DNA of 64,000 nt, from IMG/VR virus record IMGVR_UViG_3300032285_001531; one strand, written 5' to 3'. The DNA comes from a virus. Its lineage: Duplodnaviria; Caudoviricetes. Each line of letters opens with the position of its first letter. Within the stretch, counting starts at the first letter, position 1. Made by a program: the position numbers and the translations under genes. A model generated the notes under the pieces. The model had not been told where the DNA came from and did no database searches. It worked only from the letters and a program-made list of their open reading frames with translations. Below are positions 21,768-22,215 of the stretch, piece by piece.

Positions 21768-21823
21768 AGATGAACTTCGTTCATCTACCTTCAGAAATAT
21801 TCACTACGTTCATATTTCTTCGG
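21768..21823 (-). other. Two hairpins with c(GNA)g triloops and tandem GA/GA mismatches (ssDNA-type structures); may also serve as the convergent terminator
   Basis: Minus strand AGAAATAT-GA-AC-GTA-GT-GA-ATATTTCT and AGATGAAC-GAA-GTTCATCT. Confidence 0.6.
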
Positions 21824-21859
21824 TTAAGTTTAAGATTAGATTTTAATTTTATTTGTATT

Positions 21860-22215
21860 AAGACTAGTATGCCGATTAGAAGCCATGGTAGTGCTATTCA
21901 GCACTACCAAAAAATTAACGTCTGCCATGACTGTCATCCATTGTTGTCTATTCCCCGACTATCTAGCCCTTTTAGCTGATATTCGCCACCGGTTGCTCTG
22001 TAAGGTTTAATGGGACTGTAGTTTGAAGCAATGCTTCAGCAACGCATGTTACATAGTTTCAAGACAAAATACACTATGTACTCATTCAGGGTTCGCTCCA
22101 CACGAGAGCCCTGTCGGTGTTCCCTAATATTAATATTAGGTATACTCTAGTATCTATCGGCAACGAGCCTTACCTCGGCTGACTCAAAGAGGATCGAGGA
22201 ACCTCGATCAAACAA
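21860..22215 (-). ncRNA. Putative large structured non-coding RNA (~350 nt), family unassigned
   Basis: No credible ORF. At least nine mutually compatible helices, including long-range 22157-22163/21870-21876 and 22116-22120/21987-21991, plus a candidate pseudoknot. G-U pairs favour the minus strand. Ends are approximate. Confidence 0.65.

Follow-up and report, generated by a model that had tools for sequence, protein, structure and literature searches.

A conserved, strand-specific hairpin pair at a convergent gene junction of T4-like jumbo phages

Introduction

DNA mini-hairpins occur naturally in the complementary-strand origins of G4, St-1 and alpha3, in ssiA of RSF1010 and in the early promoters of N4, and the DNA form melts at 76.5 °C, compared with 39 °C for r(GCGAAAGC) (PMC13037366). 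PeSL stem-loops carry a strong sigma-70 promoter and G-run/C-run stems, and the hyperplastic regions of one genome hold about 50 of them (Arbiol et al. 2010, PMC2839356). Here we describe a pair of abutting hairpins, H1 and H2 (together, the cassette), in a 64,000-nucleotide (nt) stretch of DNA from an uncultured T4-like jumbo phage (IMG/VR record IMGVR_UViG_3300032285_001531; the whole stretch is referred to as the window). Like the natural DNA mini-hairpins, the cassette is present in a single copy in a phage genome; it differs from them in lying at a gene boundary of a double-stranded jumbo phage.

The cassette sits exactly at a convergent gene junction, and the same layout is found in about 150 contigs. 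Together with a structured RNA it occupies a 464-nt gap (21756-22219) between a baseplate-hub operon on the plus strand (hub-sense) and a PD-(D/E)XK nuclease gene on the minus strand, which is also the sense strand of the RNA (RNA-sense). A preliminary description of this site had proposed that the RNA forms an R-loop and primes replication here.

Structure and conservation of the hairpins

Both H1 and H2 are perfect 8-bp inverted repeats (Table 1), a class of structure that is scarce in the window: only about seven perfect intergenic hairpins of at least 7 bp were found there. On the plus strand, H1 reads AGATGAAC-TTC-GTTCATCT, with AGATGAAC and GTTCATCT forming the stem, and the core of H2 reads AGAAATAT-TCACTACGTTC-ATATTTCT. 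Over its extended length, the minus strand of H2 reads ACC-GA-AGAAATAT-GA-AC-GTA-GT-GA-ATATTTCT-GAA-GGT. The preliminary description had noted two hairpins and a second GA/GA pair at the base of one of them. Both features were confirmed, the hairpins with exact positions and perfect stems, and the outer GA/GAA tier (ACC-GA...GAA-GGT) recurs in a subset of relatives.

Using the hub protein as query, we collected 61 related IMG/VR loci, and the same hairpin pair follows a gp51-like open reading frame (ORF) in nearly all of them. A covariance model was built from both hairpins. In the window it finds one copy (50.8 bits, E 1e-9), the next full-length match scoring 11.8 bits; elsewhere it finds one copy per locus in 36 plus 100 loci and one per contig in contigs of up to 191 kb. 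In an alignment that was fitted to the model, and so somewhat favours structure, 94.7% of cells across relatives are paired, 13 of the 16 pairs show compensatory change, and none of 500 shuffles did as well. An exact-pattern scan matched at least 120 contigs, and about 110 of the 120 listed share the order hub, gp51-like ORF, cassette, RNA, nuclease. Nine of the 120 were out of context, lacked the hairpins and were set aside as chance matches. Two complete relatives (352 kb and 524 kb) contain the apex motif no more often than a reversed control, indicating one true copy per genome.

The two hairpins vary in different ways. In H1, 98% of stem cells are paired and six of the eight pairs show compensatory change, with matched variants such as AGATGTCC/GGACATCT, AGACGAAC/GTTCGTCT, AGTTGTC/GACAACT and AGATGCGC/GCGCATCT. 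The outer stem of H2 is likewise free to covary (AAGAAC/GTTCTT, TAAGACC/GGTCTTA, AATCCC/GGGATT), and its apex is near-invariant on the minus strand, following GA-RC-GNA/GNNA-GY-GA. The apex takes forms such as GA-AC-GAA-GT-GA or GA-GC-GATA-GC-GA, in which the inner pair switches from A:T to G:C. The cassette is thus kept by matched base changes in more than 150 related contigs, from the clade of the window to phages with only 28% hub identity, and the GNA loops and GA/GA pairs of the preliminary description are conserved across them. H1 and H2 form one real module that is under strong selection and is strand-specific.

Adjacent copies of the apex family, two or three at a time, also occur in two unrelated viral contigs with other gene contexts (L187:5880-5925 and L192:4130-4285), as GAACGTAGTGA, GAGCGAAGCGA, GAGCGTAGCGA and GAGCGTTAGCGA. 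The mini-hairpin unit is therefore not confined to this type of hub/RNA locus.

Strand asymmetry and loop rules

The RNA-sense strand carries the G·A features in the window and in most relatives. Outside the tandem G·A, 33 of 35 sequences have a C-G or U-A pair and none has the reverse orientation; the pair inside it is A-U or G-C in all 29 sequences scored, which places both sides of H2 in a pyrimidine-GA-purine context. The loop-closing pair is C-G in H2 (28/28 sequences) and mostly so in H1 (35/41). The apical loop of H2 is GNA or GNNA in 58 of 58 distinct sequences; minus-strand loops of H1 have G as first and A as last base in 53 of 58 (GAA, GTA, GCA, G-NN-A), and in a few lineages the H1 loop is flipped with the hairpin retained. 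Beneath the H2 loop, 14 of 29 homology-sampled sequences have GC-GNA-GC and the rest, including the window, have AC-GNA-GT. Some relatives carry exactly GCGAAGC or GCGATAGC.

The stems are nearly pure Watson-Crick: 924 of 928 cells are of this type, and neither strand has a G·U among the 928; in the homology-sampled set, 569 of 605 cells are Watson-Crick, four are G·U and two are A·C. Non-Watson-Crick cells within the stems are biased on the minus strand, with 20 G·A or A·G against three C·T. This bias and the near absence of G·U indicate selection on the fold of the G·A strand, with wobble pairs not tolerated. The predominance of triloops, the free middle bases of the GNNA loops and the fixed C-G closing pair correspond to the rules for DNA mini-hairpins (PMC13037366). 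The earlier structural claim of GNA loops and sheared G·A pairs in a pyrimidine-GA-purine context is thus strengthened, since loops, closing pair and tandem G·A are all conserved.

Elsewhere in the window, the minus strand at 9881-9900 carries an intergenic hairpin, AAGCGCAC-UUCG-GUGCGCUU, with a T4-style C(UUCG)G RNA tetraloop. It lies on the coding strand after the gene at 9947-11152, and suggests that ordinary mRNA hairpins of this phage use RNA-type loops, unlike the cassette.

In four relatives, which we call type B (L050, identical to L200; L054, identical to L210; L191; and L193), the G·A apex is on the hub-sense strand. Here the apex, GAGCGAAGCGA, is inverted and duplicated into two adjacent hairpins. 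One of the four, L193, has in addition retained, on the opposite strand, a hairpin of the G·A type (GA-CU-GGA-AG-GA).

A candidate transcription boundary

We tentatively favour, at somewhat below even probability, a role for the cassette as a compound bidirectional terminator or transcript-boundary element in which reinforcement by G·A pairs benefits the strand whose U-tract is poor. The boundary would divide the late baseplate-hub operon, read rightward, from the convergent unit of nuclease and structured RNA, read leftward. A hub-sense transcript would meet H1, then H2, and in most relatives then a U-tract, the layout of an ordinary intrinsic terminator. An RNA-sense transcript would meet an A-rich leader, H2, H1 and then only a short U-run (CUUUAAA). 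On this strand, the tandem sheared G·A pairs and the loops closed by G..A may build a continuous stacked rod that blocks polymerase, 3' exonucleases or both. We infer that the cassette acts in termination or transcript capping, with the G·A reinforcement working in RNA and not in DNA.

The oriented T-tract, like the structure, the strand asymmetry and the fixed position of a single copy, can be read directly. In the 12 nt after H2, the plus strand has a mean of 6.7 T, compared with 2.8 T on the minus strand after H1 (background 32%), and the hub-sense T-run typically abuts H2 directly, as GTTCTT-ATTTTTTACGG in most relatives. In the type-B relatives the T-run (ATTCTTTTT) is inverted together with the hairpins and follows them directly on the RNA-sense strand; there the hub operon has a separate canonical hairpin with its own T-run, placed after H1, and on the RNA-sense strand H1 is followed by UUUU. 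A T-tract that abuts H2 and inverts with the hairpin points to terminator behaviour. The near-pure Watson-Crick stems and the occasionally flipped H1 loop, in turn, fit an element that folds in the transcripts of both strands.

Further support comes from gene insertions and from the neighbouring RNA. Five different genes are inserted at this junction in relatives, all between gp51 and H1, with no case in the H2-RNA interval. The hub strand holds four of them (a GIY-YIG-like, an HNH, a 203-amino-acid and a GDSL-like 247-amino-acid gene), which places them upstream of the putative terminator, and a 121-amino-acid gene is on the opposite strand. The cassette also persists while the neighbouring RNA switches family, as described below.

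Several observations weigh against this interpretation. The T-tract has decayed in the window and its closest relatives, and a scan with a consensus terminator found no sites on either strand. Nearest-neighbour energies are weak for a terminator (H1, -7.3 kcal/mol; H2, -3.3 to -6.1 kcal/mol, with -3.3 to -4.1 kcal/mol for hub-sense H2 RNA). The excess of G·A over C·T mismatches indicates selection on the very strand that lacks a proper U-tract. We know of no reason why a terminator loop should stay near-invariant across hubs that are only 28-50% identical. The triloops, the free middle positions of GNNA and the fixed C-G pair appear to fit a DNA mini-hairpin better than RNA GNRA rules, and a boundary function would leave both the near-invariant apex and these DNA-like loop rules unexplained. 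Finally, a good terminator design might be reused, whereas the cassette is present once.

The interval between gp51 and H1 is an insertion hot spot in relatives, and the GIY-YIG-like and HNH genes are homing endonucleases.

The neighbouring RNA and gene context

The structured RNA fills most of the convergent gap. It shows compensatory change in 32 of 67 predicted pairs, its G·U pairs (about 3.7%) fit the minus strand only, and it is GC-richer with many invariant junction stretches. By blastn and nhmmer it was found at about 45 of the 61 related loci and about 105 of the 120 listed. Rfam searches (at gathering thresholds and at E up to 10) and ARAGORN gave no hit to either the cassette or the RNA of the window, and blastn against GenBank phages gave no match. 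In the type-B relatives the RNA appears to be minus-sense as well, with the blocks ACACCGNCAG ... ACAGANCAACNGG in the same order directly after the nuclease, as judged by eye in few sequences.

The layout recurs, with a different RNA, in a distant T4-like clade (L184 and ten others; hub identity 28%). Its H1 equivalent is GAGCGAA-GTA-TTCGCTC, and it also has a multi-tier G·A rod ending in GAGCGAAGCGA. The RNA at L184:1555-1699 (minus strand) is the Rfam family Polynucleobacter-1 (RF01718; 94.9 bits, E 3e-19), and the G·A hairpin cassette follows it by about 300 nt.

Two further conserved regions adjoin the cassette in relatives. L024, L030, L038, L045 and L047 (about 5200-5650) keep variants of the cassette. 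Between it and a nuclease-like gene they have about 450 nt of conserved non-coding sequence that is either different or strongly diverged and includes the blocks TTACTCAGGTAGGTTTGACTAT and GTTGCGTTACAGGTCATGCAACC. A third conserved element, absent from the window, lies between the stop codon of the gp51-like ORF and H1 in L021 (5052-5097), L026, L037, L034 and many others. It has the box TAAYTRTTCATTTATCA inside a covarying stem (for example AAACCCG...CGGGTTT), and a long-range CCGTAA/TTACGG pairing possibly encloses H1 and H2.

The genes around the junction are listed in Table 1. The gp51-like ORF has a tblastn match in 56 of the 61 related loci; its stop codon lies 13 nt 5' of H1, and in the closest relatives the TAA overlaps the foot of H1. 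The nuclease, which is syntenic in relatives, carries the PHROG label RusA-like resolvase. The best cultured relatives are PA5oct, Phosso and Atu_ph07, with only about 50% identity in gp46, and the H1/H2 cassette was not found in these three.

Table 1. Positions of the cassette and its surroundings, in the window unless a relative is named
Feature	Position	Strand	Remarks
gp26-like baseplate hub gene	20701-21531	+	Pfam T4_baseplate / PHROG baseplate hub
gp51-like small ORF, 64 amino acids, final gene of the baseplate-hub operon	21561-21755	+	ORF list
Hairpin 1 (H1), 8-bp stem	21768-21786	-	loop GAA closed by C-G
Hairpin 2 (H2) with extended base	21787-21824	-	core stem 21793-21819; apical 11-mer 21801-21811
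AT-rich spacer between H2 and the RNA 3' end	21825-21865	.	T-rich on plus, A-rich on minus
Structured RNA, about 330 nt	21870-22210	-	directly after the stop codon of the PD-(D/E)XK nuclease
PD-(D/E)XK endonuclease gene, directly upstream of the structured RNA	22220-22777	-	Pfam PF24608, E 2.6e-25
SbcD/SbcC-like gp47 and gp46	22812-25588	-	
Late sigma factor gp55	25634-26530	-	
Gene insertions in relatives	L085:4737-5234; L129; L104:3162-3773; L109; L016:5052-5417		L129 and L109: reverse strand
Type-B cassette sites	L200:6240-6420; L210:2978-3150; L193:7640-7800; L191:7350-7530		

The spacer and nucleotide skew

Between H2 and the RNA lies the A/T tract in which the preliminary description had seen an unwinding element. 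The tract itself is real (21826-21862, 86% AT over 37 nt), and its proposed role is not supported: at that scale, 33 regions of the window equal or exceed it in AT content. In relatives the spacer is 38-99 nt long and 59-77% AT, with neither length nor sequence conserved, and in the closest relatives only about 20 nt of it lie beyond the hairpin. The late promoter TATAAATA is absent from the spacer in relatives, and no conserved promoter was found there.

Skew in these phages tracks transcription, and the skew values are to be read accordingly. In the window, the minimum of cumulative GC skew lies near 26.5 kb, at the divergent switch in gene orientation, and the surroundings of the cassette show only a small plateau, as expected from a 1-kb plus-strand island. 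The complete 352-kb relative (G007, loci L223-L240) has its minimum at 20 kb, its maximum at 283 kb and its cassette at 13.2 kb. Its genes are on the plus strand from 20 to 283 kb and on the minus strand elsewhere, so that the skew extremes coincide with both switches. An inflection at the site itself, which the preliminary description had suggested looking for, is therefore not seen; the minimum is 5-7 kb away and follows gene orientation. The ends of this 352-kb contig overlap by about 150-200 nt, consistent with a circular or permuted assembly.

Alternative explanations

The cassette may instead be a single-stranded-DNA signal, a reading that we consider doubtful though serious. The minus strand, exposed by replication, transcription or supercoil-driven extrusion, would fold into very stable DNA mini-hairpins that a phage protein reads, as a primase-helicase loading or priming site (like G4 oric or RSF1010 ssiA), as a component of an origin, or as an N4-like hairpin promoter. 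Its loops and closing pairs obey the rules of d(GCGNAGC) and d(GCGNNAGC) (PMC13037366), and the exact GCGAAGC and GCGATAGC of some relatives fit as well. So do the single copy per genome, in the complete 352-kb and 524-kb genomes too, the stems free of G·U beside an RNA with its share of wobble pairs, the occurrence of the hairpin unit on either strand relative to that RNA, and a position within 5-7 kb of the genome-wide skew minimum.

Other observations are harder to reconcile with such a signal. Gene orientation accounts for the skew at the site with no further inflection, the AT tract is neither unusual nor conserved, and there are no iterons or repeats. The hybrid of A-rich RNA and T-rich template would be weak and thus a poor basis for a persistent R-loop. 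Termination, and not priming, explains why a T-tract abuts the hairpin on the opposite strand. The window encodes a single giant virion protein, which is structural and not an N4-like polymerase, and the cultured phages PA5oct, Atu_ph07 and Phosso lack the cassette. In its most specific form the proposal seems to us improbable by a further degree: the replisome of this jumbo-phage clade would use the cassette, read from one strand and present once, as an origin component or as an ssi-like site for priming or helicase loading. If true, this would be the first description of such a signal for a double-stranded jumbo phage.

It is unlikely, if still worth considering, that the cassette is a protein-binding or processing site in RNA that serves the neighbouring structured RNA, for example in maturation of its 3' end or as a dock for a partner such as the PD-(D/E)XK nuclease or a host RNase. 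A near-invariant apex on top of freely covarying stems typically marks specific recognition. The G·A features of the window and most relatives are RNA-sense and lie 38-99 nt after the RNA with no terminator between them; none of the five gene insertions separates cassette and RNA; and the order nuclease, RNA, cassette is kept in about 105 of the 120 listed loci. However, the G·A hairpins of the type-B relatives are antisense to the RNA, and the cassette persists beside unrelated or strongly diverged RNAs, among them Polynucleobacter-1 at a distance of about 300 nt. The linker varies in both length and sequence, and no co-variation was seen, by eye in the alignment, between H1 and the complementary GGAUGA stretch of the RNA, so that a pairing between the two was also set aside.

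The proposal of an origin primed by an R-loop of the structured RNA finds no support: the spacer is unconserved, the skew minimum lies elsewhere, the hairpins change strand, the RNA changes family, and the T-tract resembles that of a terminator. Its premise that the hairpins lie on the strand displaced by the R-loop holds in the window and most relatives and apparently fails in the four type-B relatives, where the G·A hairpins are opposite the RNA strand and hence not on the strand that an R-loop of that RNA would displace. The origin idea in its first form is weakened, not refuted, and we regard it as improbable.

Least credible is the idea that the hairpins are left over from a mobile palindromic element (REP/RAYT-like, or a PeSL-like recombination cassette) and now serve no function at the site: hairpin units are duplicated and inverted in some lineages and homing-endonuclease genes are inserted beside the cassette in several relatives, yet the single copy per complete genome, with the motif at control frequency, and a position fixed down to 28% hub identity largely refute it, and strong purifying selection on structure and the absence of both a sigma-70 promoter and the PeSL GGGG..CCCC stem add to this.

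Several other candidates were rejected. Coding was considered for a 69-amino-acid ORF starting at the ATG of H1 (21770-21979) and for a six-codon mini-ORF on the minus strand; both were discarded because the ATG is lost in variants (AGACG, AGTTG, AGACA) and the indels are not multiples of three. A late promoter in the spacer for a small hairpin RNA was dismissed since, besides the missing TATAAATA, TATAAA occurs in only four of about 35 lineages. Against an N4-type hairpin promoter, the 5463-amino-acid ORF matches a virion structural family and there is a single cassette (the search for a polymerase covered the 64-kb window). For a retron, the G·A features are RNA-sense whereas multicopy single-stranded DNA would presumably be antisense, and no reverse transcriptase is nearby. 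Inspection by eye of the G·A tiers revealed neither the CUGANGA...GAAA of a hammerhead nor the 3-nt bulge of a k-turn.

Implications

The cassette lends itself well to testing: each genome has one copy, always in the same place, with a deep alignment and clear covariation rules, and natural inversions separate the strand of the hairpin from its neighbours. Resolving its function would reveal either DNA-type mini-hairpin signals in double-stranded genomes or an unusual, asymmetric terminator. In addition, an uncatalogued 330-nt RNA has its 3' boundary marked by the cassette, and the locus links the orphan Rfam motif Polynucleobacter-1 to T4-like jumbo phages, beside their baseplate-hub genes.

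Comparison with known systems

Unlike REP/RAYT palindromes, the cassette is not dispersed or multi-copy (a RAYT gene was not searched for). With PeSL elements it shares the character of an intergenic stem-loop with terminator behaviour in T4-type phages and with gene insertions adjoining it, but it is single-copy, promoterless and located in the conserved core. As at T4 oriF and oriG and in ColE1, a transcript runs into an AT-rich stretch, here with the recombination genes gp46 and gp47 nearby; in contrast to those origins, the locus has no conserved unwinding element, skew inflection or conserved promoter, its RNA is deeply conserved and structured and is not a primer precursor, and the strand of its hairpins is not fixed relative to that RNA.

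The likeness to the DNA mini-hairpins d(GCGNAGC) and d(GCGNNAGC) is one of detail, in the C-G closing pair, the sheared G..A closure and the GNA/GNNA loops with free middle positions, although the two-pair stem in the window consists of A:T plus C:G (ACGTAGT) and not of two G:C pairs. From bidirectional intrinsic terminators the cassette differs in having two abutting hairpins with weak, AT-rich stems, a conserved 11-nt apex and strand-specific G·A, and in the loss of the U-tract in the window. It resembles them in its place at a convergent junction directly after a stop codon, and in having an A-run and a T-run on opposite sides of its hairpins.

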